The notes: generated by a model not told the origin, from the sequence alone. Positions 15,601 through 26,171 are shown, numbered from the stretch's first letter. The stretch is DNA of 32,000 nucleotides from Candidatus Methylomirabilis limnetica (GCF_003044035.1 NZ_NVQC01000022.1:210001-242000); one strand, 5' to 3'. Program-made: numbers and translations.

Positions 15601-15967
15601 GAAGGAGGTCCATCAGGTTCGGATAAAGTTGCACCTCCTCAATCTTTGCGAGGACTCCGTCCTGGAGCCGCTCCCGGCTCGCGATTCGGACGTCCCGGAG
15701 ATTCAATGATCGGAGGACCGCGCTCACGCGTACCTCGCCGATCTGGACCTCATGGTCGAATCGTGCCTGGACCTCGGACTGGATTCGGGATCGAATCTTC
15801 GCCTGAATAGAGTGAGTCCGCAGCAGCAGGGAGATACTGCCAAGCACGAAGAGGATGAGTCCCGCCACGATTCCAATCGTGATGACGACCCACCGGGCCC
15901 GGCCAGTCACAGGCAGTGGCACGAGAGGCATACGATGCAATGACTTACCCGTCACGCCGGTATCCAA
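12677..15967 (-). CDS. AsmA/TamB-family large envelope protein (N-terminal TM anchor)
   Basis: 1096 aa. N-terminal hydrophobic helix WVVITIGIVAGLILFVLGSISLLL, a long repetitive beta-rich body, and a C-terminal region resembling the DUF490/AsmA C-terminus. The family call rests on architecture only. Confidence 0.65.
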   Translation of the reverse strand: MDTGVTGKSLHRMPLVPLPVTGRARWVVITIGIVAGLILFVLGSISLLLRTHSIQAKIRSRIQSEVQARFDHEVQIGEVRVSAVLRSLNLRDVRIASRERLQDGVLAKIEEVQLYPNLMDLLRFRLRLGRIVLRHPIVRLELPRPQTEPGSPMPVLLPVGIEHVEIRDGSVLWRDSGIELTLVGLHADLRATAGVVGGTLKIEESKIQGGATPFLLRDLTLRAEVDGGDIQVKQFHLSVLGAAVQGAGRIHNFLTDATLDLTMQARGGLDGLFPLNLPIPLRGAVLLEGKATGPLTDPSFTGSAAVGNGQIEQVAMSGMTVAVLANRRELRLQELTLRTARGDLTGDIMLIWEKLRYRLALRGEQVDLADILRLFTEKTPVGGQATIQIQATGEGADLRGLRGQAHIRIAELYLIDRPEERGHGQFVLEARDGRIHVRQGTVEIGRARLQAEGVVQPNGEVSLSVYAHFPQLEHTGRLVGIDPHALAGQATLKGQIRGTPETLHGQGTVTLTNALILKEHWDRGRATVHLDQRGLRLEGLELHRGGEMIAGRFEVGFNGVSQFDLSSNRIAIERLALLRNSGLTGTVRASAKGEGPIGQPNVTTTLEVGDLAYRGTSLGRGHGTLTWEGARARMTGLLSLPDRGYMLQGVVTATGASPYEGTLTLEKGDLGSLLRIVGASLPNQMDGVGSGRIEIGGRLGEQRPERVTVDLETAQLNFRGHAFRTQDRTRLAFQGGRLMISALSLRGEGTEVTVGGTIGEEMDVTIRGAVSGALASALLPDGLDATGVLDLDVRIQGTQRLPRYRGHLRTKDASLTVRGHPGPLEHLAGEIQFKETSVETTHLQARWGGGTLGATVQGRLEQPGWRWRIQLTMEEGRAERIVKDQDSFLATGQVRASGVVTAGGGEYFLRSLGGRVRIEMVDGRIQRSFMIEKVLRMTNLTGLFKKGPEGKGMPYDDISATFNLKDGIARTEDLKLRSTALRAGGVGQFDLAHRTVDVVLAVRPLSLTDEALKATSELPIMKELKIGTLLFGKEKSILVISFRIHGPITQPAVEGIPTQSVERGVLGIFKRILDLPGDLRSGGGQAPDRRPDQGQP

Positions 15968-15989
15968 GACGAATCATCCGCACTTCTCT

Positions 15990-16289
15990 GTTGAGATCCC
16001 CCCTGTTACGAGCAATTATATTCTGGTGGAAACTTTTGCGCTTTTGCAAAATCGCCTCGGCATGGAAGCGGCACGAGCATTTCAGGACGATATACTCCCG
16101 CTGATCAACATTGAGTTTATTGCCTCGGGTACACATCGATCCGGGGTCGCGGCCCTTCTGTCTGCATCAAGACGAGATCTCAGCATAGTGGATTGTGTCA
16201 GCTTTGAGGTCATGCGCACATCAGGGATTAACACCGTCTTTGCCTTCGACAAGCATTTTAAAGAGCAAGGGTTTACCAATATAGCCTGA
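15990..16289 (+). pseudogene. N-terminally truncated PIN-domain toxin (vapC remnant)
   Basis: The C-terminal two-thirds of a VapC-like PIN domain is present (VTSNYILVETFALLQNRLG...DLSIVDCVSFEVMRTSGINTVFAFDKHFKEQGF). The first acidic-residue block and any vapB partner are missing. The upstream part of the ORF overlaps the asmA-like gene start. Confidence 0.55.
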
Positions 16290-16354
16290 CTCTCGTAACC
16301 TTGCCTAGGGCCATTCACTGGCCCGGCCTCCGCTTAGTTGCCGCCACTAACTGA

Positions 16355-16480
16355 TGCCTGGACCAAGCGATCCGCGAGGATCTCTACTACCGCCTCAATG
16401 TCATCACTGTCTCGCTTCCACCACTCAGAGACCACCCCGAGGATATCGCCCCCTTAACTAATCGCTTCCTGGCCCAATAA
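16355..16480 (+). pseudogene. ~40-codon fragment of a sigma54-dependent (NtrC-family) AAA+ activator
   Basis: In-frame translation [40 protein letters not shown] matches the conserved [20 protein letters not shown] block. There is a stop directly upstream (16352) and no rest of the gene. Confidence 0.6.
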
Positions 16481-16732
16481 GACTGATCCGCGTGTGGTTC
16501 GCCTGGCTCACCATGAGCGGAGGGAGACATCCACGGCATGCATGACTTATGCAAGGATCAATAATTATTTCGGTTCTTCCGGCACTAGCGTGGGTACAAG
16601 AGGGCTCAATATCCCTTCTGGGGAATAGGGTAGCTGTGCTCCTACCCCTTGAGGGGAGAGGATGAAGGTGGGGGTGATCGGATCCTGGAAGGCCCGGGTA
16701 CCCACGGAACATCCGGAAGAAGCATTATTTTC

Positions 16733-16769
16733 TTGACGTATTAGTCATATATATACTACTAAGGAGTAG
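16733..16769 (+). promoter_or_regulatory. lexA promoter/operator region
   Basis: TTGACG at 16733-16738 is followed by GTATTAGTCAT. Imperfect 22-bp palindrome TTAGTcaTATATATAcTACTAA at 16741-16762. Palindrome CTACT-N4-AGTAG at 16756-16769. RBS AGGGAG at 16789 and ATG at 16800. Confidence 0.4.
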
Positions 16770-16799
16770 AGGTTCAGAGGAGAAAATCAGGGAGACTCG

Positions 16800-17393
16800 A
16801 TGGTACTCACCGACCGGCAGCGGCAGATCCTGACTTTCATCGCCACCTATAAGGCCCGGCATGGTGCCCCCCCGACGCAGCGCGAGATCGCCCAGCACTT
16901 GAAGATCTATATTCGGGGCGTCCAGTATCACCTCGAGCGTATGGAGAAGGCCGGCCATCTCACCCGCACGCCCAAGCGGGCGCGGGCCATCGAACTGCGC
17001 CAGGAGCAACGCACCACCCTCACGCCTCTACTCGGTCGGGTGGCGGCCGGCCGGCCGGTCCTGGCCGAAGAGCATATCGAGGCCACGTACCCGCTTCCCC
17101 AGGAATGGACCGGTAGCGGGAAGACCTTCCTCTTAAAGGTTCATGGCGACAGCATGCGCGATGCCCGCATCTTTGACGGCGACCTCGTGCTCGTGGCGGC
17201 GCAGCCGGAGGCCCACCCTGGCGAGATCGTTGTGGCCATGGTCGAGAACGAGGCCACGGTCAAGCGCTTCCAGACGGACGGCACGACGGTCGTCCTCATG
17301 CCGGAGAACGAGGCGTTCGCGCCGATCAGGATCACGCAAGAGCAGCGTTTTCAGATCCTGGGTAAGGTCATCGGCGTCTATCGGAAGCTGTAG
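16800..17393 (+). CDS. lexA: LexA repressor (S24 peptidase)
   Basis: 197 aa. Winged-helix N-terminus (TDRQRQILTFI...REIAQHL), cleavage site VAAGRP, catalytic Ser in HGDSM and Lys in ATVKRF. Confidence 0.9.
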   Translation: MVLTDRQRQILTFIATYKARHGAPPTQREIAQHLKIYIRGVQYHLERMEKAGHLTRTPKRARAIELRQEQRTTLTPLLGRVAAGRPVLAEEHIEATYPLPQEWTGSGKTFLLKVHGDSMRDARIFDGDLVLVAAQPEAHPGEIVVAMVENEATVKRFQTDGTTVVLMPENEAFAPIRITQEQRFQILGKVIGVYRKL

Positions 17394-17395
17394 TC

Positions 17396-18100
17396 ATGCA
17401 ACGTGTGCTTACGCCCAAGCCGCCCTTGTCCCAGTTCACCTGCGCCCTCGACCGGTGGAGCGCGCAGGGTGGCCTCGTCCTGCTCTATGGCAGTGAAGAT
17501 GTCCTCGCCTATGCCCTATTGGCGATCGCCTCGCTGCTCGCCAAAGGAGAGCATGTCGTCTTCATCGATTCGGCCAACACCGTCAACCCCTTCCTGATCG
17601 CCGAGGTCGCGACGCGCATGAACAGGCAGCCGAAAGAGCTCCTCGACTGCCTCCATATTTCACGGACCTTCACCGTCCATCAACTGGAGGCCCTCATCAC
17701 GGAACGCATCGCCAGAGCCCTGCACACCTATGCCTCACGCATCCTGATCGCCTCCGGCTTTCTCCACAACCTCTATGATGAAGACGTGGCGCCGCGGGAG
17801 GCTTGGCGGATCTTCAGAAAAGCGGTGGCCCATCTGCGGGCGCTGGCCGATGCAGGCACCCTCGTCCTGGTGGTCTGTCCCACACCAGCCGCTCGTAGTG
17901 AGCCAGGTCGAACCATCCGTCTCCGTGACCGGGACGGGCTGCTGGATGCCCTGATCGCCACGGCCGATCGAGTTGTCAAGCTGGTCACCTCCACTACTTC
18001 GGCTACGCTCAGTACAGGGCTCTCCCTGGAAAAGTCGGTCATGGTGAGGAGCACAGCTAAAAGACTTGACCGCCTCTCAGGTTTGGCATACGAAACGTAA
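17396..18100 (+). CDS. ImuA/SulA-like inactivated RecA-fold protein
   Basis: Starts 2 nt after the lexA stop. It has RecA/KaiC-like topology (LVLLYGSEDVLAYALLAIASLLAKGEHVVFIDSANTVNP...LHISRTFTVHQLEALI...RILIASGFLHNLY), but the Walker A GKT is replaced by GSEDVLAY. Confidence 0.5.
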   Translation: MQRVLTPKPPLSQFTCALDRWSAQGGLVLLYGSEDVLAYALLAIASLLAKGEHVVFIDSANTVNPFLIAEVATRMNRQPKELLDCLHISRTFTVHQLEALITERIARALHTYASRILIASGFLHNLYDEDVAPREAWRIFRKAVAHLRALADAGTLVLVVCPTPAARSEPGRTIRLRDRDGLLDALIATADRVVKLVTSTTSATLSTGLSLEKSVMVRSTAKRLDRLSGLAYET

Positions 18101-18206
18101 GCGGCTTACTGAATAGTTATACGTCGCAAGCATAGTTGTTCACATGCACCTGCGCCAGTTGATCGCAGTACAGAACAATCGGGGTTATCTGCGGACAGGA
18201 GTCTTG

Positions 18207-19196
18207 ATGCTAAGTCGATTTGAAAAACAACTCTTCGGGCTGATGACGGGCGCTTTTGCATCTCGAGCGCTTGCGATCGCGGTTCAACGAGATCTATTCA
18301 CGTGGCTGTCGCGGGGGGGAGACGGGCAGACAGTAGAACAAGTCGTCGCGTATTTGGGGTTTCAAGAGCGGACCTCACGAGTATTTCTTGATGTGCTCTC
18401 CGCGATAGGGCTCTTGCGGTGCGAGAATGGACTGTTCCGTAACACTGAGCTCTCTGAGCAGCTCTTGGTACGCGGTCGCATAGCCGATCAACGTGGCGCC
18501 GTCGCGCTGTTTGATCATTTGTATCTTGGGTGCGGAACACTTGAACACACGCTCAAAACAGGAAATCCGGCCAGCCGTGAATATGGGTACTTTTTTGGCG
18601 CCGGTACAGGTTCTTACCCGGATGATATGGACGGAAGTGGGTTTGCACCCGCGCTACTCCTCGGTGAGTTTTGGGATTTCTCCAATGCGCGGCACGTTCT
18701 CGACGTGGGCGGATGTCTCGGAGCTACAGCTCACGCGCTGGCGGCACGATATCCCAACCTTCGCGTAACGGTGTTCGACCTTCCCGAAATTTGTGAACGC
18801 GGGAAGGCCTTGTCCAAGCAGCATCCGGCATCTGACGCGCGCGTGACATTTCACCCGGGGAATTTCTTTGACGAGGACTACCCGCATGGGGTCGATACCA
18901 TTTGCTTTGTGCGCATCCTTCACGATTGGTCCGATAAGGAGGCGCTTCGTCTCTTGGAGAAAGCACATGCGGCTCTGCAACCAGGGGGACGAATCGTCAT
19001 TCTCGAAACGCTGCGCGAAGGTTCAGAGAAGGCGTCACTGACCGCATTGATCGATCTTCTGATGCTGCTAATCAGTCCGGAAGGAGGGCTAAGAACAAGA
19101 GTGGCAATGGGCAAACTCTTGCGCACTGCTGGATTTCGAAGGGTCCGGACAAAGCCAACCGCGTATCTTTATAGCCTCATTTCTGCCGAGAAATAA
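18207..19196 (+). CDS. Class I SAM-dependent O-methyltransferase (COMT/Methyltransf_2-like)
   Basis: N-terminal winged-helix dimerisation region, SAM motif VLDVGGCLGATAHALA, DLPE, then ILHDWSD and GGRIVILE. I prefer the ATG at 18207 (GGAG upstream). The ORF track starts at 18144. Local GC is about 50%. Confidence 0.8.
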   Translation: MLSRFEKQLFGLMTGAFASRALAIAVQRDLFTWLSRGGDGQTVEQVVAYLGFQERTSRVFLDVLSAIGLLRCENGLFRNTELSEQLLVRGRIADQRGAVALFDHLYLGCGTLEHTLKTGNPASREYGYFFGAGTGSYPDDMDGSGFAPALLLGEFWDFSNARHVLDVGGCLGATAHALAARYPNLRVTVFDLPEICERGKALSKQHPASDARVTFHPGNFFDEDYPHGVDTICFVRILHDWSDKEALRLLEKAHAALQPGGRIVILETLREGSEKASLTALIDLLMLLISPEGGLRTRVAMGKLLRTAGFRRVRTKPTAYLYSLISAEK

Positions 19197-19200
19197 AACC

Positions 19201-20358
19201 ATGACAAACCGTACAGCATTGATCACAGGCGCCGCCGGCTTCCTGGGATCGTTCCTCACGGCGGCACTGCTTAATCGAGGTTGGCAGATTTACGCGCTTG
19301 TCCGTAGTAAGCCGGACCAATTACCCCAAGCGTTACTTGCGCACGAACTACGGGGTAACCCTGCCGTTCTTGAACGTCTTACCGTGCTGGAAGGCGATGT
19401 AACCCGTCCGCTACTAGGGCTCACGTCATCAATGGTTAGCAGGCTGCAGAATGTGACCGACGTATGGCACTGCGCCGCCAATTTCGAGATCGGCTCGTCG
19501 CATCGAAAAGCCATTGTTGATACTAACGTCGTTGGTACCAAACATGCGCTCGATCTCGCTCATACCCTGACAGGTCAATCCATTCGATTTCATTTCCTGA
19601 GTACAGCCTACGCCGGGCTCCAAATCAACGACACATGTTTCGAGCGCCTGAGCGACAGACGTGACGGTGCGTTTCGTACGTCGTACGAATGGACTAAATC
19701 TCGCGCTGAGCACCTTGTCATGGCGGCACGCGAGGAGCGACATCTGGATGTGCGAATCTACCGTCCGTCGGTTGTTTCCGGACATTTCACAAACGGACAG
19801 TGCCTCAGTTACAACGGATACCAGGGTGTATTTCGCGCCCTGTATATTTTGCGCCGTATGCTACAGAACGCATTCGGACCTGACTTTGACCGGAACCTGA
19901 GACTTCGCGTCGCCGCTGATCCAGACCTGCGCCTTAATCTCGTGCCGGTCGACTACGTCATTGACGCAATGATTTGCATAGCGGATCAAGAGATTTCTGG
20001 CACCCCTATCTTCAACATTACGCATTCTACGGGGAATCAGTTATCCATGCTCTTCGAGCGCGGGACCAAAGCGCTTGCACTGGAGGGGATTCAACTGTCC
20101 GACAAGCACGATTTTCGTCGGCGCCCAAAGTCTTCGTTCGAACGGCTTTTTGATCGGCTCATCCTATTTCAGGCACCCTACCTCTTAGAGTCATTGTCGT
20201 TCGATACGACGAATTACGCTCAAGTCGTACCGGGGAGACTTTTGCACGCACCAATCCTTTCGAGCGAGTATTTTGACAGAATGAACCACGTGTTACTACA
20301 TAGGCTACAAGAGGAGTTTGAAGTCGTCGCGACACCAACCGTAGACGCAGTATCCTAA
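19201..20358 (+). CDS. Extended SDR, thioester-reductase / acyl-CoA-reductase-like (NAD_binding_4-like)
   Basis: 385 aa. Rossmann motif ALITGAAGFLGSFL and catalytic YEWTKSRAE (YxxxK). Length and C-terminal domain fit terminal reductase domains. Local GC is about 50-52%. Confidence 0.7.
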   Translation: MTNRTALITGAAGFLGSFLTAALLNRGWQIYALVRSKPDQLPQALLAHELRGNPAVLERLTVLEGDVTRPLLGLTSSMVSRLQNVTDVWHCAANFEIGSSHRKAIVDTNVVGTKHALDLAHTLTGQSIRFHFLSTAYAGLQINDTCFERLSDRRDGAFRTSYEWTKSRAEHLVMAAREERHLDVRIYRPSVVSGHFTNGQCLSYNGYQGVFRALYILRRMLQNAFGPDFDRNLRLRVAADPDLRLNLVPVDYVIDAMICIADQEISGTPIFNITHSTGNQLSMLFERGTKALALEGIQLSDKHDFRRRPKSSFERLFDRLILFQAPYLLESLSFDTTNYAQVVPGRLLHAPILSSEYFDRMNHVLLHRLQEEFEVVATPTVDAVS

Positions 20359-20494
20359 GGCTGTCGAACTGTGCGGGCCGTGCTTGATCGACGTAGAACG
20401 ACCGCATCCACACGGACGCGCGCAAAAAGCGGCGCGCCGCTGATCGCTAGCGTTCGCCAAAGCAACGGGGCGCCAAAAGGCGCTGCGCTTGAAG

Positions 20495-20522
20495 CCGAAT
20501 CATGAGGAGGCATTCGGTTTTT
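20495..20522 (+). terminator. Putative intrinsic terminator after the methyltransferase/reductase pair
   Basis: CCGAAT-11 nt-ATTCGG followed by TTTTT, with a second T-run at 20529-20535. The stem is short (6 bp). Confidence 0.4.
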
Positions 20523-20533
20523 GAGCGATTTTT

Positions 20534-20563
20534 TTGACTCACGGTATTAGTCATCCGTATAAT
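20534..20563 (+). promoter_or_regulatory. Near-consensus sigma70-type promoter for the small-ORF/polB unit
   Basis: TTGACT at 20534-20539, an 18-nt spacer containing GGTATTAGTCAT, and TATAAT at 20558-20563. Confidence 0.55.
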
Positions 20564-20569
20564 TACTGT

Positions 20570-20725
20570 GTAACTACTTAGGTGTTTAGGCTGAAGGCTG
20601 AAGGTTCTAAATTATCTCGCAAGGCACGAATCGATCCATTCAAGACCTTTTCGGAGTTTTGTATGATCACGCATGACTTACCCCTAACAGCCTTCAGCCT
20701 TCAGCCTAAACACCTGAGTAGTTAC
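20570..20725. repeat. 35-bp inverted repeat (one G-U position) enclosing an 86-nt loop, at the predicted 5-prime end of the polB transcript
   Basis: Left arm 20570-20604 is gtaactacttaggtgtttaggctgaaggctgaagg. Right arm 20691-20725 is ccttcagccttcagcctaaacacctgagtagttac. A tandem cctgagtagtt x2 and a competing palindrome cacctgag...ctcaggtg (20711-20744) follow. Confidence 0.85.
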
Positions 20726-20807
20726 CTGAGTAGTTGCTCAGGTGATTTCGGGGCTTTGCCCTTCGCCATGACAACAACATAGCGGGTTACGAAAGCGAGG
20801 TGGGACC

Positions 20808-21077
20808 ATGGGGAGGACGCTGCCGACGTATAACATGCTGATCCTGCAAGAACTCGACAAGGACGAGTGGAAGCGATTTCGGCGGGCGCTGCGTAGGGAC
20901 GACCAGGAGTTGTTCGATGAGCTGTTCATCGCGCCGAAGATCCAGATGCAGGCCGGCGCCTATGCCAGCAACGCGAAGCCGTTCGAGACGATGCTGATCT
21001 GCATGCTGATCGAACTGAAACAGGAACTCAGGATTCTGGAGCAGCGAGTTGCGCACACAGAAGGGCTGGCTATTTGA
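20808..21077 (+). CDS. Hypothetical 89-aa helical protein, translationally overlapped with polB
   Basis: ATG is preceded by GAGGTGGGA. The product is charged and helical (LQELDKDEWKRFRRALRRDDQELFDELF). Its 3-prime end overlaps the polB TTG start by 29 nt. I recognise no family. Confidence 0.5.
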   Translation: MGRTLPTYNMLILQELDKDEWKRFRRALRRDDQELFDELFIAPKIQMQAGAYASNAKPFETMLICMLIELKQELRILEQRVAHTEGLAI

Positions 21078-23271
21078 TCTCTATCCGTCCAGGGACGGGA
21101 TGGTGCTTTGGCTCAAGACCGAGCAGGAATGCCTCCGCCTGGTTGACACGTACTGGGCGTCGTTTTACCTTGCCGGCCCAGACGCGGCGCTCAAGGCGTG
21201 CGTGTCCTACATGCTCCGGCAGCGCCTGCCGATCACGACGGAGTGGACAGAGCGCCGGGAGTTGTTGTCGAATCGTTTCATCCCCGTGCTCAAGGTCAGC
21301 ACGTCGAGACTCGACAGGTTCTCCGCCTTTGTCCAGTTGGCCTATCGGTTCAACCCGGAGCTCACCTTCTACAACTGCGATATCCTGCTACCGCAGCGCT
21401 ATCTCTACGAGACGGGGTTGTTCCCTCTGGCCCAGTGTGAACTGACTTACGATGAGAGCCTACGACTCAAAGAGATCCAGCTCTTGGATTCGCCGTGGGC
21501 TGTCAACTACCCCATCCCGCCGCTTCGCTTCCTGCAACTGCGGATGGAGCATGAGGCCAACCCGAGCCACGCCCGGACCACCCGGTTAATCGCGTCAGTC
21601 GATGACCGCGAGTTCGTCTTCGAGGCGGAAGGGGCAGAGCTTCTGAGGAGTCTGAACAGCCTACTCCAGAAGTACGACCCCGATGTTATCCTCTCGCGAT
21701 ACGGCGATTCGTACATCCTTCCCAGACTCCGGAGGATGGCGGATACGTGTGGCATCCCGCTTGACTTCAACAGGGACGGCGCGGCAGGGATGACCAGCAA
21801 GCAGGCCAGGAGCTTCTTCACCTACGGCAGGATCGTCTATCAGGCGGGTGCTCAGATCTTGCATGGCCGCTGGCACCTGGATATCGCGAACTCGTTTGTT
21901 GTCAAGGAGACGGGTCTGGACGGCCTGATGGAGCTGGCCCGGGTCACGAAGCTACCGGTACAGCGTTGCGCGAGGACCTCTCCAGGTACGGGCGTCTCAT
22001 CAATGCAGCTTGACGTGGCGTTCCAGGATGGCTATTTGATCCCCTGGCGCAAGCGAATGCCGGAGGATTTCAAGACCGGGAGCGAGCTGCTGCTCACAGA
22101 CAAGGGGGGCTTGGTCTTTCAGCCGCAGATTGGGTTGTACGAGCAGGTCTGCGAGCTCGACTTCAGCTCAATGTTTCCCAGCATCATGGTCAAGTATAAC
22201 ATCTCGCAGGAAACTCTGCGGTGCGCCTGCTGTCCGGAGAACAGGGTCCCGGAGATCGGCCACCACATCTGCACGAAGCGGCGGGGGCTGGTGCCTCGGA
22301 CGCTCGAGCCGGTGCTCACGCGGCGGCGCGCCTACAAGCTGCTGATGCGGCAGGCAGTCACGGCGGACGAGCGCGAGCTGTACAACAAGCGACAGTCTGC
22401 TCTCAAGTGGCTTGGCCTGGTCTCATTCGGGTATCAGGGATACCGGAACGCGCGCTTCGGACGGCTTGAAGGGCACGAGGCGGTCACCGCCTATGCGCGG
22501 GAGACGCTGCTGGCTGCCAAGGAGATCGCTGAGGCACAAGGCTACTCGCTCATCCATGCGATTGTCGATTCGATGTGGCTGAAGAAGGCGGGCGCGACAC
22601 GGGAGGATTATGAGCGGCTGGCGGCAGACATCTCGCGGCAGACCGGGCTTTCTATGGCCATTGAAGGGGTGTACCATTGGATCGCATTCCTGCCGTCACG
22701 GGTATCCCCGAAGGCACCGGTCCCCAACCGCTATTTCGGCTGTTTCGTAGACGGCACACTCAAGGTGCGGGGCCTGGAGGTCAGGCGCTCAGACACGCCG
22801 GGGTTTGTGCGGAGCGCCCAGGCTGCGATGCTTAAGACGCTCTCGCAGGCCAGAACCTACGACGAATGCACAGCGCGGGTCCCTGAACTACTCGACGAGC
22901 TGAGGGTACGCGTTGATGCACTACGAAGCGGCGGGGTACCGCTTGCGGAGTTGGCCATCTCCAGACACCTGTCTCTAGTACCTGTGGCGTACAAGACCGA
23001 CACGATCCTCTCGGAGGCGGCCAAGGACCTTGCGAGTCGAGGGGTTCATCTCTCTGCAGGTGAGACGATCCAGCTTGTGATCGTGGACTCTAAAGCCAAC
23101 GATCACGTCTCGAAAGCAAAAGCGTACGGTTTTTACGACGGCAGCCTGGGATACGATGTCGAGAAGTACACGGAACTCACGCTGAAGGCCGCAGAGTCGG
23201 TACTGTGGTTTTTAGGCTACGACTATGCCCGGTTGAAGGCGCTGATATCGGGAGAGCGCAACGACTGTTAA
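21049..23271 (+). CDS. Family-B DNA polymerase, archaeal PolB/Pol II-like, with degenerate exonuclease domain
   Basis: 740 aa, colinear by eye with Pfu-type PolB. Matching blocks are N-terminal GWLFDLY, FYNCDILLPQRYLYETGL, DPDVILSRYGDSYILPRL, motif A ELDFSSMFPSIMVKYNISQETL, motif B RQSALKWLGLVSFGYQGY, motif C LIHAIVDSMW and RGLEVRRSD. TTG start with GGAG 8 nt upstream. Confidence 0.9.
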   Translation: MRTQKGWLFDLYPSRDGMVLWLKTEQECLRLVDTYWASFYLAGPDAALKACVSYMLRQRLPITTEWTERRELLSNRFIPVLKVSTSRLDRFSAFVQLAYRFNPELTFYNCDILLPQRYLYETGLFPLAQCELTYDESLRLKEIQLLDSPWAVNYPIPPLRFLQLRMEHEANPSHARTTRLIASVDDREFVFEAEGAELLRSLNSLLQKYDPDVILSRYGDSYILPRLRRMADTCGIPLDFNRDGAAGMTSKQARSFFTYGRIVYQAGAQILHGRWHLDIANSFVVKETGLDGLMELARVTKLPVQRCARTSPGTGVSSMQLDVAFQDGYLIPWRKRMPEDFKTGSELLLTDKGGLVFQPQIGLYEQVCELDFSSMFPSIMVKYNISQETLRCACCPENRVPEIGHHICTKRRGLVPRTLEPVLTRRRAYKLLMRQAVTADERELYNKRQSALKWLGLVSFGYQGYRNARFGRLEGHEAVTAYARETLLAAKEIAEAQGYSLIHAIVDSMWLKKAGATREDYERLAADISRQTGLSMAIEGVYHWIAFLPSRVSPKAPVPNRYFGCFVDGTLKVRGLEVRRSDTPGFVRSAQAAMLKTLSQARTYDECTARVPELLDELRVRVDALRSGGVPLAELAISRHLSLVPVAYKTDTILSEAAKDLASRGVHLSAGETIQLVIVDSKANDHVSKAKAYGFYDGSLGYDVEKYTELTLKAAESVLWFLGYDYARLKALISGERNDC

Positions 23272-23275
23272 CGAG

Positions 23276-23319
23276 TGGCTGAGGGGCAAGGATTCGAACC
23301 TCGATAAGCAGATCCAGAG
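23276..23319 (-). pseudogene. 3-prime fragment of tRNA-Gln(CUG): anticodon loop to CCA, no 5-prime half
   Basis: Minus strand reads CTCTGGA-TCTGC-TTAT-CGAGG-TTCGAAT-CCTTG-CCCCTCA-G-CCA. The T-arm and GCCA end nearly match E. coli tRNA-Gln(CUG), which reads CGAGGUUCGAAUCCUCG....GCCA. No complementary 5-prime acceptor strand (TGAGGGG) or anticodon-stem partner lies upstream. Confidence 0.6.
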
Positions 23320-23572
23320 TTGTCTGACCCTCCTGTGACGGCATAAGCATCCCTGTATTTTCAATCAGTTAGACATCGGAGTGCTGGACGCTCCCCACCT
23401 ATTGTACCTCATTACCCATGAGTTCCACATCAGAGGTGGAATGCAGGCGGAATGACTGAGGTGCTAATGTGCAAACTCCAGACTATCGCCGGTGTGACCA
23501 CCGACATAATTCAAGCGTAGTTATATGCGAAGGGCGATGGTGGTTGGTGATCGCGCCTGAAGGAGCCGGAGA

Positions 23573-24199
23573 ATGAACATCGTGAATGGCGTACTACGGT
23601 GGAGCGTCCTGATCCTTGTTAGCGTGCTGGCGGTAACAGTGCCGCTGACGGAGGCGTGTGCTGGCAGCCGTGGGGGTGGTGGTCGGGGAGGTGGCAGCCA
23701 TGGCGGTGGTCATGGCGGTGCCAGCCATCATTGGGGTGGTCACCATGGTGGCCGGCATGGTCACGGAGGGTTCAGCAGTGGCGTCGTCGTCGAATTTGGT
23801 GGGTGGTGGAACCCGTGGGGGTATGGAGGGTACGCGCCGTACGGGTGGGGAGCGCCCAGATACTACGGCTACCCTGAGCACCCCTATGGTGGGTACGCTC
23901 CATCGTACGCCTACCCTCCCGCTGTGCCACCGTATGCGTACGACTACGACGCTGCGGCGGGCGGTGCGTCGCTCCAGATCGAGGTGACGCCTGGAGAGAC
24001 GGAGATCCTGGTGGATGGCACCCGGGTGGGGATGGCCAAGGAGTTTCAGGGACCGGTCATCGTCCCGGTGGCGGCTGGATCCCACACCCTGGAGTTCAGG
24101 GTGGGCGGGCTGACGATCATCGAGGACATCGTGGCCTCGCCGCGGACGACGGTGCTCATCAAACGAGATATGGGAACGACCGTGGTACCACAGCAGTAG
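23573..24199 (+). CDS. Secreted His/Gly-rich protein with C-terminal PEGA domain
   Basis: AAGGAG RBS. Signal-like N-terminus (VLILVSVLAVTVPLTEA), then GGGGRGGGSHGGGHGGASHHWGGHHGGRHGHGG, then a Tyr/Pro/Gly-rich linker. The C-terminus LQIEVTPGETEILVDGTRVG...GSHTLEFRVGG is typical of PEGA. Confidence 0.7.
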   Translation: MNIVNGVLRWSVLILVSVLAVTVPLTEACAGSRGGGGRGGGSHGGGHGGASHHWGGHHGGRHGHGGFSSGVVVEFGGWWNPWGYGGYAPYGWGAPRYYGYPEHPYGGYAPSYAYPPAVPPYAYDYDAAAGGASLQIEVTPGETEILVDGTRVGMAKEFQGPVIVPVAAGSHTLEFRVGGLTIIEDIVASPRTTVLIKRDMGTTVVPQQ

Positions 24200-24226
24200 C
24201 CGCTCCCGTCAGAGACGACCGTCTCG

Positions 24227-24518
24227 ATATAGGGATAGACACTATTCATTGAAATCCTTTCTTGGTCTTCCCCTCTGCTACGCGTGTATTACTCGTCCAG
24301 TTTCCTGCGCCCCAGATGAACCCATCCCTTCGTAGTGGCCGCCCTGTCATCGTGTACCTCCGAATCGCTGTCGTTCCGAAAGGCCGACTGGTGATCATTC
24401 CCTCGTTGTCTCACATGATACGGGTGGCCGGATGTAACGGTTCGAGCAATCCGTGGCATGCACGATCATGACCGCGAACACCGCGAATCGTCACGATAAA
24501 TAGTGTCTGTCCCTATTT
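24227..24518 (-). mobile_element. ~290-bp non-autonomous element, copy 2
   Basis: Ends ATATAGGGATAGACACTATT and AATAGTGTCTGTCCCTATTT. Interior is colinear with the other copies. The RayT-like N-terminus is on the minus strand. Confidence 0.8.
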
Positions 24519-24631
24519 ACCTCTTTACTAGCCGCTGCGTCGGGCGGCGCTCTATCTCGCCATGTGCGGCGCATGCCAAGCTACTTGCGCTGCTGAGGCC
24601 CCGCCCTGCCGATGACAGAGACCTGCGTCCC

Positions 24632-24934
24632 CTAGCGCGGGGCAGGATGTGTGGCGGTAATTCGATTCACCTTGATCTTCGCAGCGTGTCGTTCTGCCTG
24701 AGCAAGGTCATACTCCATCTGTAGACCGAGCCACACCTCGGGGCTGCTGCCGAAGGCCTTAGAAAGTCGGATCGCCATCTCCGGAGAGATCCCGGCCTTC
24801 TCGTTCACCAGGTTGTTGAGGGCCTGCCGCGTCACACCAAGGCGTTTCGCTACGTCTGTAACAGTCACTCCGAGCGACTCGATACACTCTTGGCGGACAA
24901 TCCTTCCGGGGTGGGGGGGATTCTTCATACGCAT
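24632..24934 (-). CDS. higA: HigA-family antitoxin (XRE HTH)
   Basis: MKNPPHPGRIVRQECIESLGVTVTDVAKRLGVTRQALNNLVNEKAGISPEMAIRLSKAFG is the classic HigA/VapI pattern. AGGAG RBS. The gene lies downstream of higB. Confidence 0.9.
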   Translation of the reverse strand: MRMKNPPHPGRIVRQECIESLGVTVTDVAKRLGVTRQALNNLVNEKAGISPEMAIRLSKAFGSSPEVWLGLQMEYDLAQAERHAAKIKVNRITATHPAPR

Positions 24935-24956
24935 GCCGTATTCTCCTTTTTCCCTA

Positions 24957-25235
24957 CTAGTGGTAGTCGATCAGATCTACATCATATACGTCGCCTTCCT
25001 CAAAGCGGAAGATGACTCGCCAGTTTGCCCGGACAGTCACGCTCCAGAAGCCTGTGAGGTCACCCTTGAGCCGGTGCAGTCTAAAACCTGGCAGGTTCAT
25101 TTCTTCAGACCTTCTGGCGCGGTTCAACATGAACAGGATGTTTTCGAGTTTCTCGAGTAGATCCGGGGAGACGCCCCTGACATCACCCTGTTGAAACAGC
25201 CGTCTCAACCCCTTATGCCCGAACCGTTGAATCAT
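24957..25235 (-). CDS. higB: HigB toxin (RelE/ParE superfamily, plasmid-killer type)
   Basis: 92 aa. FGHKGLRRLFQ...LHRLKGDLTGFWSVTVRANWRVIFRFEEGDVYDVDLIDYH. Confidence 0.9.
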   Translation of the reverse strand: MIQRFGHKGLRRLFQQGDVRGVSPDLLEKLENILFMLNRARRSEEMNLPGFRLHRLKGDLTGFWSVTVRANWRVIFRFEEGDVYDVDLIDYH

Positions 25236-25368
25236 GGCTCAGCGTAGCATGATTAGTGACAAGTGTCCATTGTCGTGACGAGACCCCATCTCACCGTGAC
25301 CCACATCCCCTTATGATCGCTGGAGCCGCCGCCTGAGGTTACCCGCACCTGGAAGTCGAAGTATAGTG

Positions 25369-25663
25369 ATATAGGGACAGACACTATTTATTGAAAACCT
25401 TTCTTGGCCTTCCACTCTGCAGCACGTGTATTACTCATCCAGTTTCCTGCGCACATCCCAGATGACCCCGTCTCTTCCAGTGGCCGTTCTGTCATCGTGT
25501 GCCTTTGAATCGCTGTCGTTCCTAAAGACCGCCTGACGATAATTCCCTCGTTGCCTCACATGATACGGGTGGCCGGATGCATACTGTTCGAGTAATCCGT
25601 GGCATGCACGATCATGACTGCGAACACCACAAATTGTCACGATAATAGTGTCTGTCCCTATTT
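25369..25663 (-). mobile_element. ~290-bp non-autonomous element, copy 3
   Basis: Ends ATATAGGGACAGACACTATT and AATAGTGTCTGTCCCTATTT. The right terminus word CCTATTTTT is reiterated just outside the element (to 25676). Confidence 0.8.
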
Positions 25664-25943
25664 TTCCTATTTTTCGTGCTGGGCGCTGACTGGGGTGACC
25701 TGAGGACTCCCAGGAACGGGACGAGGGGCATGGGAGGACGAGGGAGGAGTACTTGTCTCGGATTGGGTGATTCGGGTCCCAAGAGGCCGCTGAGCGGGTG
25801 AGCCCGCGTACAGAGACGTGCTCCTCGTGGGCCATGCTGGTCACGGGGTCTTCAAACCGTCGTGATCGGTTCACAATGGGATTATGGCAAAGGCTATCTC
25901 TGTTTTTGGGCACATCCTGCAACGAGACAATCGGCCGGTTTCA

Positions 25944-26171
25944 CTATTTGTTAGAAGCGTGAAGGAATTGCTCAACCGTTAATCCCGCCTTGGAGATAAG
26001 ACTGCGGAGGGTCCCGCGTGCAACTTCTGGGTGGTTAGGGATGGAGAGAGTGACGCTGTGGCCTGGTTTCGTCATGATAATGTGACTTCCCTTTTGTCGA
26101 ACTACTTGCCAACCTAGCGTTTGGAAGATTTGCGCTGCTTCAGATGGGCGAAGAATAGGGGCGGACGGCAT
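25944..26171 (-). CDS. hicA: HicA mRNA-interferase toxin
   Basis: 75 aa. LGWQVVRQKGSHIIMTKPGHSVTLSIPNHPEVARGTLRSLISKAGL is the YcfA/HicA signature. The start overlaps the hicB stop by 1 nt. Confidence 0.9.
   Translation of the reverse strand: MPSAPILRPSEAAQIFQTLGWQVVRQKGSHIIMTKPGHSVTLSIPNHPEVARGTLRSLISKAGLTVEQFLHASNK

Follow-up and report, generated by a model that had tools for sequence, protein, structure and literature searches.

The PolB2 mutasome, in which a family-B DNA polymerase (PolB2) is encoded together with an inactivated RadA homolog (iRadA) and a small helical protein (PPB2), was recognised only recently as a widespread alternative to Pol V and ImuABC/DnaE2 in damage-induced mutagenesis, and for bacteria it is known computationally only. 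Here, such a locus is described at positions 16733-23271 of a 32,000-nucleotide (nt) stretch of Candidatus Methylomirabilis limnetica, a member of the NC10 phylum (GCF_003044035.1, NZ_NVQC01000022.1: 210001-242000); the whole stretch is referred to as the window. Judged from its sequence and by analogy with the archaeal system, the region is very probably a bacterial PolB2 mutasome locus with an SOS-induced role in translesion synthesis (TLS) or primer extension. Gene identity, motifs, synteny and operator-like sites were determined here, while the architecture of the complex (in silico) and the TLS/extender activity (archaeal enzyme) are taken from the literature.

PolB2, inactivated RadA and arCOG07300, a helical protein of ~90 amino acids (aa), were reported as a conserved predicted operon in archaea and several bacteria, and in some bacteria, e.g., Leptospirillum ferriphilum (LFML04_0990-0993), lexA belongs to the same operon (Makarova, Krupovic and Koonin, 2014; PMC4104785). 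The bacterial polymerases form group G2, which lies deep inside archaeal B2 and is characterised by a non-conserved ExoI, the loss of ExoIII and a single Asp in motif C (Kazlauskas et al., 2020). The partners were named iRadA and PPB2 in a study that modelled a PolB2:iRadA:PPB2x3 heteropentamer and highlighted the N-terminal MGRT arm of PPB2, a Rad51-oligomerisation-like beta-alpha loop plus D(K/R) in PolB2, with modelled contacts to iRadA and the PPB2 arm, and clamp-binding motifs (Timinskas, Timinskas and Venclovas, 2025; PMC11791011). In bacteria only the order iRadA-PPB2-PolB2 was found, at times interspersed with other genes and in neighbourhoods enriched in lexA, and the supplementary tables list NC10 operons annotated LexA/iRadA/PPB2/PolB2 with the motif HAIVDS (PMC11791011). 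A 2026 survey repeats this description of the PolB2 mutasome. The sole experimentally studied member is archaeal Dpo2, a damage-inducible, exonuclease-free extender of mismatches and lesions that is responsible for targeted mutagenesis. The iRadA-PPB2-PolB2 module arose in archaea and was then transferred to bacteria.

The window carries the same four families, in the same order and on the same strand, as the operon of L. ferriphilum and the NC10 entries, and it shares with the bacterial G2 operon the MGRT arm, the IVD motif C, the dead exonuclease, the P-loop-less RadA core and, as a sequence pattern, the predicted FxxA-like loop followed by DK. Unlike in compact G2 operons, two genes lie between those of iRadA and PPB2, together with a putative terminator, another promoter with a candidate operator and a hairpin resembling a miniature inverted-repeat transposable element (MITE), and unlike in the described G2 operon, neither iRadA nor PolB2 has a recognisable clamp-binding motif. 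Archaeal PolB2/Dpo2 (Sulfolobus islandicus) is a homologous, damage-inducible three-protein module, likewise with an exonuclease-dead PolB and an I-x-D motif C, but it is subject to Orc1/Cdc6-type and TFB3 regulation instead of LexA, is associated with PCNA instead of the beta clamp and has a variable gene order. ImuA-ImuB-DnaE2 is also often headed by lexA, combines an (often inactive) RecA-superfamily protein and an accessory protein with an error-prone polymerase, and has a presumably analogous role, but its components are unrelated, as ImuA is RecA-derived, ImuB belongs to the Y family and DnaE2 to the C family. Multisubunit TLS is further known from Escherichia coli Pol V (UmuD'2C-RecA), which binds its RecA-family subunit via an oligomerisation-type motif but belongs to another catalytic family and has other small subunits, and from yeast Pol zeta, a B-family, exonuclease-dead extender that differs in domain of life and small subunits. 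E. coli Pol II (PolB group G1) is B-family and LexA-regulated, but it has a single subunit, an active DEDDy exonuclease and a beta-clamp motif, and it matches the window PolB2 weakly (E 3.8e-8).

A first-pass annotation of the window had proposed that a family-B polymerase and a small partner fill the ImuB/DnaE2 role in an architecture that it did not recognise as described. The analogous role is strongly supported by the cross-phylum synteny reported below, but the module was imported from archaea and did not arise from an Imu cassette by exchange of its polymerases, and the architecture had been reported with lexA in Leptospirillum in 2014 and modelled in 2025, NC10 operons with LexA included. 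The locus adds no new architecture; its value is that of a clean natural experiment, in which an operon is split and both halves carry the same operator-bearing promoter.

The cassette proteins

The first gene of the cassette, lexA (16800-17393, + strand), encodes an SOS repressor of 197 aa, which matches TIGR00498 with 208.8 bits against a cutoff of 110.95 (equivalog level) as well as the Pfam families LexA_DNA_bind (PF01726) and Peptidase_S24 (PF00717). It combines a winged-helix DNA-binding domain with an S24 peptidase domain, in which the cleavage site (VAAG, Ala83-Gly84) and the Ser/Lys dyad (Ser118 in GDSM, Lys155 in VKRF) are intact, as the first-pass annotation had read them.

The TAG stop of lexA ends at 17393 and the ATG of iRadA begins at 17396 (17396-18100, + strand, 234 aa), so that 2 nt lie between the two genes. 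At the P-loop position, iRadA reads GSEDVLAY in place of GxxxxGK[ST], in line with the Walker A-less RecA-fold protein annotated here before, and none of 63 aligned iRadA relatives has a GK[ST] P-loop. The protein matches Pfam Rad51 (8.8e-5, 22.3 bits against a cutoff of 22), and the NCBIfam matches are RadA, Dmc1 and Rad51 only. A profile of 34 iRadA members retrieves only RadA/Rad51/Dmc1/RadB structures (best 6.8e-9) and gives no RecA match, and scanned singly against NCBIfam, the 34 relatives likewise match RadA/Dmc1/Rad51/RadB models only. The alignment of iRadA starts with the RadA core domain, hence the N-terminal helical domain is lacking; core homology to RadA/Rad51, a lost ATPase site and this shortened N-terminus together characterise iRadA.

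These results bear on the identity of the 234-aa protein, which the first-pass annotation had considered ImuA-like. If it were, the locus would be a novel mutasome in which an ImuA-type protein is kept and ImuB/DnaE2 are replaced by PolB and a small partner, and the layout is superficially similar, with a Walker A-less RecA-fold gene immediately after lexA. It is also the case, as had been noted, that imuB and dnaE2 are absent from the window: no Y-family or C-family polymerase was found in Pfam scans of nearly all open reading frames (ORFs) of at least 120 aa. However, iRadA and its 34 relatives match RadA/Rad51/Dmc1/RadB only, and a Foldseek search with a single-sequence AlphaFold2 model of low confidence (pLDDT 48) ranks RadA/DMC1 cores first (TM ~0.5). 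No ImuA-named family of NCBIfam, which we take to hold an ImuA model, or of Pfam matches the window protein (E <= 0.1) or the 34 relatives (E <= 0.01). Moreover, the three genes travel as a unit across phyla, also in archaea without LexA, and the architecture is already published, which leaves an ImuA-type mutasome hardly any probability. Since the protein has the features of iRadA and matches no ImuA-named family, "ImuA-like" names a role and not a family.

In several related loci, which are numbered here with the prefix L, iRadA ends in clamp-binding-like tails, namely QLRLF, QLNMF or QPRLF (L016, L038, L056; QPRLF in L024, L025, L029, L030, L033, and L080). Such beta-clamp-binding-like tails of iRadA have been reported (PMC11791011).

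The small partner PPB2 (20808-21077, + strand, 89 aa) starts 2,707 nt past the end of the iRadA ORF and begins with MGRTLPTY, i.e., with the N-terminal MGRT arm. An xGRT start (nearly all MGRT) is found in 66 of the 68 PPB2 homologs whose N-terminus is present. Precomputed annotation assigns PF26485/DUF8156 to the 89-aa homologs of L081, L084, L085, and L086; a local Pfam copy gave no match to the window protein. A single-sequence AF2 model of PPB2 contains three helices (residues 18-29, 33-41, and 58-85), with a mean pLDDT of only 54.9.

PolB2 (21049-23271, + strand, 740 aa) has a TTG start, overlaps the PPB2 ORF by 29 nt and is 100% identical to an NCBI protein of Ca. Methylomirabilis limnetica. 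Promoter, 89-aa ORF and polymerase lie on the same strand ~2.7 kb past iRadA, at the coordinates given in the first-pass annotation. The protein matches PF00136 (1.2e-34) and, over nearly its full length, NF004416 (400.9 bits). Its motifs were compared in an alignment of 79 full-length bacterial members, including the window protein, which replaced strict regular expressions that missed divergent members. The ExoI DxE position reads RME and the ExoII motif NxxxFD is replaced by GDS-x-ILP, so the exonuclease is dead, as had been annotated, and the ExoI Asp position is occupied by R, K, S, A, or Q in all 79 proteins. Motif C is IVD and not DTD (HAIVDS, residues 503-508); its first position is never Asp (I, Y, or L in 79 of 79), while its second Asp (D507) and the motif A Asp (D371) are found in every member. 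The catalytic residues Asp371, Asp507, and Lys453 are conserved in the window protein. A B-family fold, no ExoI site, a single-Asp motif C and a retained motif A Asp place it in group G2, whereas an E. coli-type Pol II (group G1) does not fit, as the exonuclease motifs are lost and the matches to NCBIfam Pol II models reach only 37-47 bits, where at least 570 would be required.

The sequence pattern of a predicted loop, F341-K-T-G, is followed by D351-K352, which is spaced from motif C by 154 residues, compared with 148 in S. islandicus, and is predicted to be equivalent to 253-DK-254 of that species. Across the 79 sequences the element F341-K-(S/T)-(A/G) has F in 68, K in 75 and A or G in 75, and D351 of the conserved D351-(K/R) is present in all. 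Between motifs A and B lies a Cys cluster, C-x-C-C-x12-C (residues 392-408, 22222-22272), with C394 and C408 found in 79, C395 in 77 and C392 in 70 of the bacterial proteins. An aligned Pyrobaculum PolB lacks this cluster, which the 2025 mutasome paper does not discuss (PMC11791011); a metal site or a pair of disulfide-forming residues are possible readings.

Conservation of the gene order

A scan of 185,579 bacterial and archaeal species genomes, with one genome per species, confirmed PolB relatives in 596 of the 600 candidate stretches listed, which is a lower bound; the stretches belong to Nitrospirota, Chloroflexota, Armatimonadota, Bacteroidota/Ignavibacteria, Thermodesulfobacteriota, Acidobacteriota and others. 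In the best 80 of these loci, ORFs were called and searched with the window proteins. An iRadA homolog lies directly upstream of PPB2-PolB2 in 65 of the 80 loci, a PPB2 homolog directly upstream of PolB in 71, and a LexA-like gene is present in 32. If the count is restricted to loci whose upstream sequence exceeds 1.3 kb, both iRadA and PPB2 are found directly upstream, in the order RecA-like/small ORF/PolB, in 60 of 64, and a LexA-like gene lies in the upstream flank of 28 of the 56 loci with more than 2.2 kb of upstream sequence. The lexA-iRadA half and the ppb2-polB2 half are linked far beyond chance, which bears out the association between polymerase and upstream genes that the first-pass annotation had suspected. 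In the window itself, iRadA, PPB2, and PolB2 keep strand and order despite the 2.7-kb insertion.

The seven largest-flank ORFs that were scanned in related loci include no ImuB or DnaE2. These large ORFs, considered as candidates for DnaE2 or ImuB, were identified instead as RecJ-HIRAN, UvrD fusions, oxidoreductases and others. In L028 (Armatimonadota; 15851-19663), a ~1,250-aa RecJ (DHH/DHHA1/OB)-HIRAN fusion is encoded a few kb past PolB2 and in the same orientation, and proteins of similar size and position in L049, L026, L021, and L008 are presumably the same fusion. The RecJ-HIRAN protein may be a further damage-response gene of the neighbourhood.

The inserted genes

In the closest relatives among the matches listed (PolB 89 and 86% identical), lexA, iRadA, ppb2 and polB2 form compact operons whose genes overlap. 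Aligned with these at the junction, the insertion in the window spans from the end of the iRadA gene to ~30 nt upstream of the 89-aa ORF. On this comparison, an ancestral compact operon is split here by two unrelated genes and a terminator. The first of the two genes (18144-19196, + strand) encodes a class-I O-methyltransferase of 350 aa (PF00891 5.1e-36, plus a dimerisation domain), the second (19201-20358, + strand) a thioester-reductase-type short-chain dehydrogenase/reductase (SDR) of 385 aa (PF07993 4.8e-43; TIGR01746 1.1e-35). The family names of this cargo point to a function unrelated to repair. Methyltransferase and reductase have marginal matches in only 3 of the 80 loci (E 8e-6 to 3e-4), none of them inside a cassette; the SDR has a single one, in L016 (E 3.3e-4, 19 bits, opposite strand, ~8 kb off the cassette). 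The O-methyltransferase is absent from the compact operons of the closest listed relatives, L081-L083 and L086.

Downstream of the cargo, a terminator-like hairpin followed by a U7 run (20486-20535, + strand) was found by RNA folding (-25.9 kcal/mol, z -2.98); a simple scanner overlooked it since its loop exceeds 8 nt. It would close a lexA-iRadA-cargo unit. No promoter of its own was detected for the cargo pair (18144-20358), which lies between iRadA and this hairpin, and the O-methyltransferase gene is probably co-transcribed with lexA-iRadA. The pair is probably read from the lexA promoter, hence it would be damage-inducible.

Promoters and candidate SOS control

The promoter of lexA (16729-16757, + strand) has a -35 box TTCTTG and a -10 box TATACT and contains a candidate LexA operator with the core GTATTAGTCAT at 16738-16748 and the palindrome TTAGT-N12-ACTAA. 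A second promoter (20534-20563, + strand), TTGACT-18 nt-TATAAT, agrees with the consensus at 11 of 12 positions, is the sole strong sigma-70-type match in 16300-23600 and confirms the near-consensus promoter of the first-pass annotation. It bears a copy of the operator core (20544-20554), so that the two promoters share the 11-mer GTATTAGTCAT, which starts at 16738 in the one and at 20544 in the other, compared with an expected count of 0.14 at <=1 mismatch. A promoter-operator module TATTAGTCAT...TATAAT thereby heads both the lexA-iRadA and the ppb2-polB2 half. The half-sites of the candidate operator are ATTAGTCA and TATA.

A position weight matrix (PWM) built from six sites has only two matches in the 32-kb window, at the two cassette promoters, and in Methylomirabilis relatives with the relevant upstream sequence it finds sites only before cassette pieces, one to three per relative. 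In these relatives the cassette is in two or three pieces, with a PEMT/ICMT methyltransferase, a dioxygenase, DoxX, EthD, DUF418 and an integrase fragment as cargo. In L084, L085, and L001, the module (G)TATTAGWCAW-N3-TATAAT, behind a T-run, heads each separated cassette gene (L084 at 2232, 5592, and 7887; L085 at 5719 and 7654; L001 at 1955); the site of L081 (at 436) is an 18/20 palindrome, TATTAGACATATGTATAATA. The retention of one and the same module ahead of every separated piece, as seen in several lineages of Methylomirabilis, speaks for selection to keep them co-regulated, and it suggests a duplication of the promoter-operator module by which the cassette fragments would be kept co-regulated.

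SOS control of the family is supported independently by LexA boxes of a known type in other phyla. Cheo-type LexA boxes (TTGACATACGAACACTTGTTCGTATAAT) lie between -35 and -10 (TTGACA/TATAAT) directly upstream of iRadA in Armatimonadota (L008, L021, L026, L028, and L049), and AGAAC-N4-GTTCT boxes occur in the upstream regions of Anaerolineae cassettes (L025, L029, L030, and L080). Taken together, GAAC-N4-GTTC boxes of these two groups are present in 10 of 60 upstream regions, compared with 0.009 expected per region. Only the Cheo type is enriched; no E. coli, alpha-proteobacterial, cyanobacterial, Bdellovibrio or Verrucomicrobia LexA-box pattern was found in these upstream regions. Further palindromes, each specific to a lineage, overlap the promoters of cassettes headed by lexA (L011, L013, L042, L043, L046, L047, L057, L062, L066, L069, L070, and L077), among them CTAAACATATGTATAG in Syntrophobacterales, which resembles the Methylomirabilis site. 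This set of cassette palindromes could be used to catalogue the LexA boxes of poorly studied phyla.

From these comparisons, we infer that LexA binds the TATTAGTCAW...TATAAT module. The module could instead be no more than a strong promoter that was duplicated, or it could bind another regulator, since it overlaps the -10 box, so that its conservation is partly promoter signal; five of the six sites have an imperfect palindrome, and the module has not been seen before classical SOS genes, none being in the sequence examined. On the other hand, the module heads lexA itself, where autoregulation is expected, the L081 copy is nearly a perfect palindrome, the Syntrophobacterales palindrome is similar, and its position in the spacer is that of bona fide Cheo boxes in other phyla. 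A promoter or foreign site devoid of LexA is on balance unlikely, if an alternative of some substance. If LexA does bind the module, it would represent a previously undescribed NC10 LexA box and a case in which fragmentation of an operon is compensated by duplication of its operator, and an O-methyltransferase and a thioester-reductase-type SDR would be under SOS control as cargo. With two short DNA fragments and one LexA protein, the locus makes the SOS control of a bacterial PolB2 directly accessible, and it provides a candidate NC10 LexA box.

A palindromic element in the ppb2 leader

Between the second promoter and ppb2 lies a MITE/REPIN-like palindromic element (20570-20747, no strand assigned). 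Its two 35-nt arms occupy 20570-20604 and 20691-20725, and part of an additional end is also present. The arms are 97% complementary, the element folds with -102 kcal/mol (z -7.65), and its ends read GTAACTRCTCAGGTGTTTAGGCTGAAGG... and ...CCTTCAGTCTATCTACCTGAGTAGTTAC. Comparison with the leader of L084 places its insertion only a few nt past the -10 box. The hairpin was considered as a dedicated regulatory structure; this was rejected, since the element belongs to a family of small palindromic repeats.

The 24-mer of the arm is found exactly in more than 120 unrelated metagenome contigs (33-68% GC), and four copies lie in viral contigs. The copies outside the window (L088-L211) measure 80-250 nt, share their ends, have variable interiors and lie in unrelated, mostly intergenic contexts; in most of them the arms differ such that G-U pairs are possible on one strand only. 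Exact cluster look-ups for a host gave one taxon label only, Desulfobacterales, and with this one Desulfobacterales-like host contig the element family is present in at least two phyla. Rfam has no family for the element (window at gathering thresholds; leader and five copies at E-value thresholds, with only a chance 18-bit sRNA match), and neither an autonomous copy nor a target duplication was seen.

Module and element can be combined into one account of the Methylomirabilis lineages, in which the mutasome operon was repeatedly broken by cargo, each piece (iRadA, ppb2, polB2) was re-equipped with a ~45-bp module consisting of T-run, -35, TATTAGWCAW-N3 and TATAAT, and a previously undescribed palindromic mobile element of at least two phyla settled in the ppb2 leader. 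This account as a whole is put forward tentatively, its chances being a little short of even.

Proposed mechanism and alternative functions

Damage induction of the bacterial PolB2 mutasome locus would follow from the linkage to lexA and the operator-like sites. In the proposed mechanism, LexA would bind both operators, which overlap the -10 boxes, and repress both units. Upon DNA damage, RecA-stimulated self-cleavage of LexA would derepress the two, releasing lexA-iRadA with its two cargo genes on the one hand and ppb2-polB2 on the other. The FxxA-type loop of PolB2 (F341-K-T-G) would bind iRadA, and a PPB2 trimer would place one MGRT arm beside the active site. The complex would then perform error-prone lesion bypass without proofreading, mainly by extending mismatched or lesion-paired primer ends like archaeal Dpo2, and induced mutations would result.

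Several points weigh against this interpretation. The function of bacterial PolB2 is extrapolated from Sulfolobus and in silico models, and the single-sequence structure models of PPB2 and iRadA, being of low confidence, lend weak support only. In the window the TATTAGTCAW...TATAAT motif is only an imperfect palindrome, and expression could suffer from the hairpin that lies in the leader of ppb2. A beta-clamp motif is not recognisable in the iRadA of the window, with its tail ...RLSGLAYET, or in PolB2, whose tail was also read. Furthermore, motif A position F376 (SMFPS; codon 22174-22176) is Phe in the window PolB2 and Tyr in 75 of the 79 aligned proteins. This position presumably corresponds to the sugar steric gate of other B-family polymerases.

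Part of these features would also be expected of a decaying remnant, with split and uncoupled halves and a PolB2, classically predicted to be inactive, that does not act as a polymerase in this genome: cargo genes and a mobile hairpin element interrupt the operon, the first Asp of motif C is gone and the Tyr of motif A is replaced by Phe. However, all four ORFs (lexA, iRadA, ppb2, polB2) are intact and full length, the three catalytic residues are conserved, the same operator-promoter precedes each separated piece in several Methylomirabilis lineages, and archaeal Dpo2 is a robust polymerase with the same single-Asp motif. Decay is therefore very improbable.

The complex could also be real and have another job, be it replication restart or regulation or a role in a mobile or defence island, instead of TLS. 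Processing of stalled forks or regulation of replication was considered by Makarova et al. (PMC4104785), toxin-antitoxin genes lie in the right flank of both the window and L081, where a TraG/TrwB-like gene is also found, and PPB2 and iRadA match PHROG families of unknown function. Yet the lexA linkage and the LexA boxes point to the SOS regulon, Dpo2 genetics indicate damage tolerance and targeted mutagenesis, and PADLOC gives no meaningful defence-family match for iRadA, PPB2, or PolB2. A function other than TLS is accordingly considered improbable, if less so than decay, and an SOS-induced mutasome is preferred.

Viral matches and neighbouring genes

The viral families in question are phrog_16666, which matches iRadA, and phrog_26583 and phrog_30126, which match PPB2. 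On this evidence, virus or provirus sequences contain the module as well, in whole or in part. Two groups of PADLOC matches were rejected as spurious domain overlaps, namely that of PolB to an intein/homing-endonuclease model and those of the LexA helix-turn-helix to CARF/Csa3 models.

Just upstream of lexA, a short open frame of 35 aa (16373-16477) resembles by eye the end of a sigma-54 activator AAA+ domain; it has no Pfam match and may be a gene remnant. The left flank of the cassette is a suf/moaA housekeeping region, and toxin-antitoxin genes are found in the right flank. There, the cassette borders a variable region (23573-26171) with genes for a secreted protein rich in Gly and His, for HigB/HigA and for HicA. 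The variable region of the close relative L081 (25-321 and 4700-10223) encodes MazE, PemK, Uma2 and a TraG/TrwB-like coupling protein, a hint that the cassette borders on a mobile or island-like segment.

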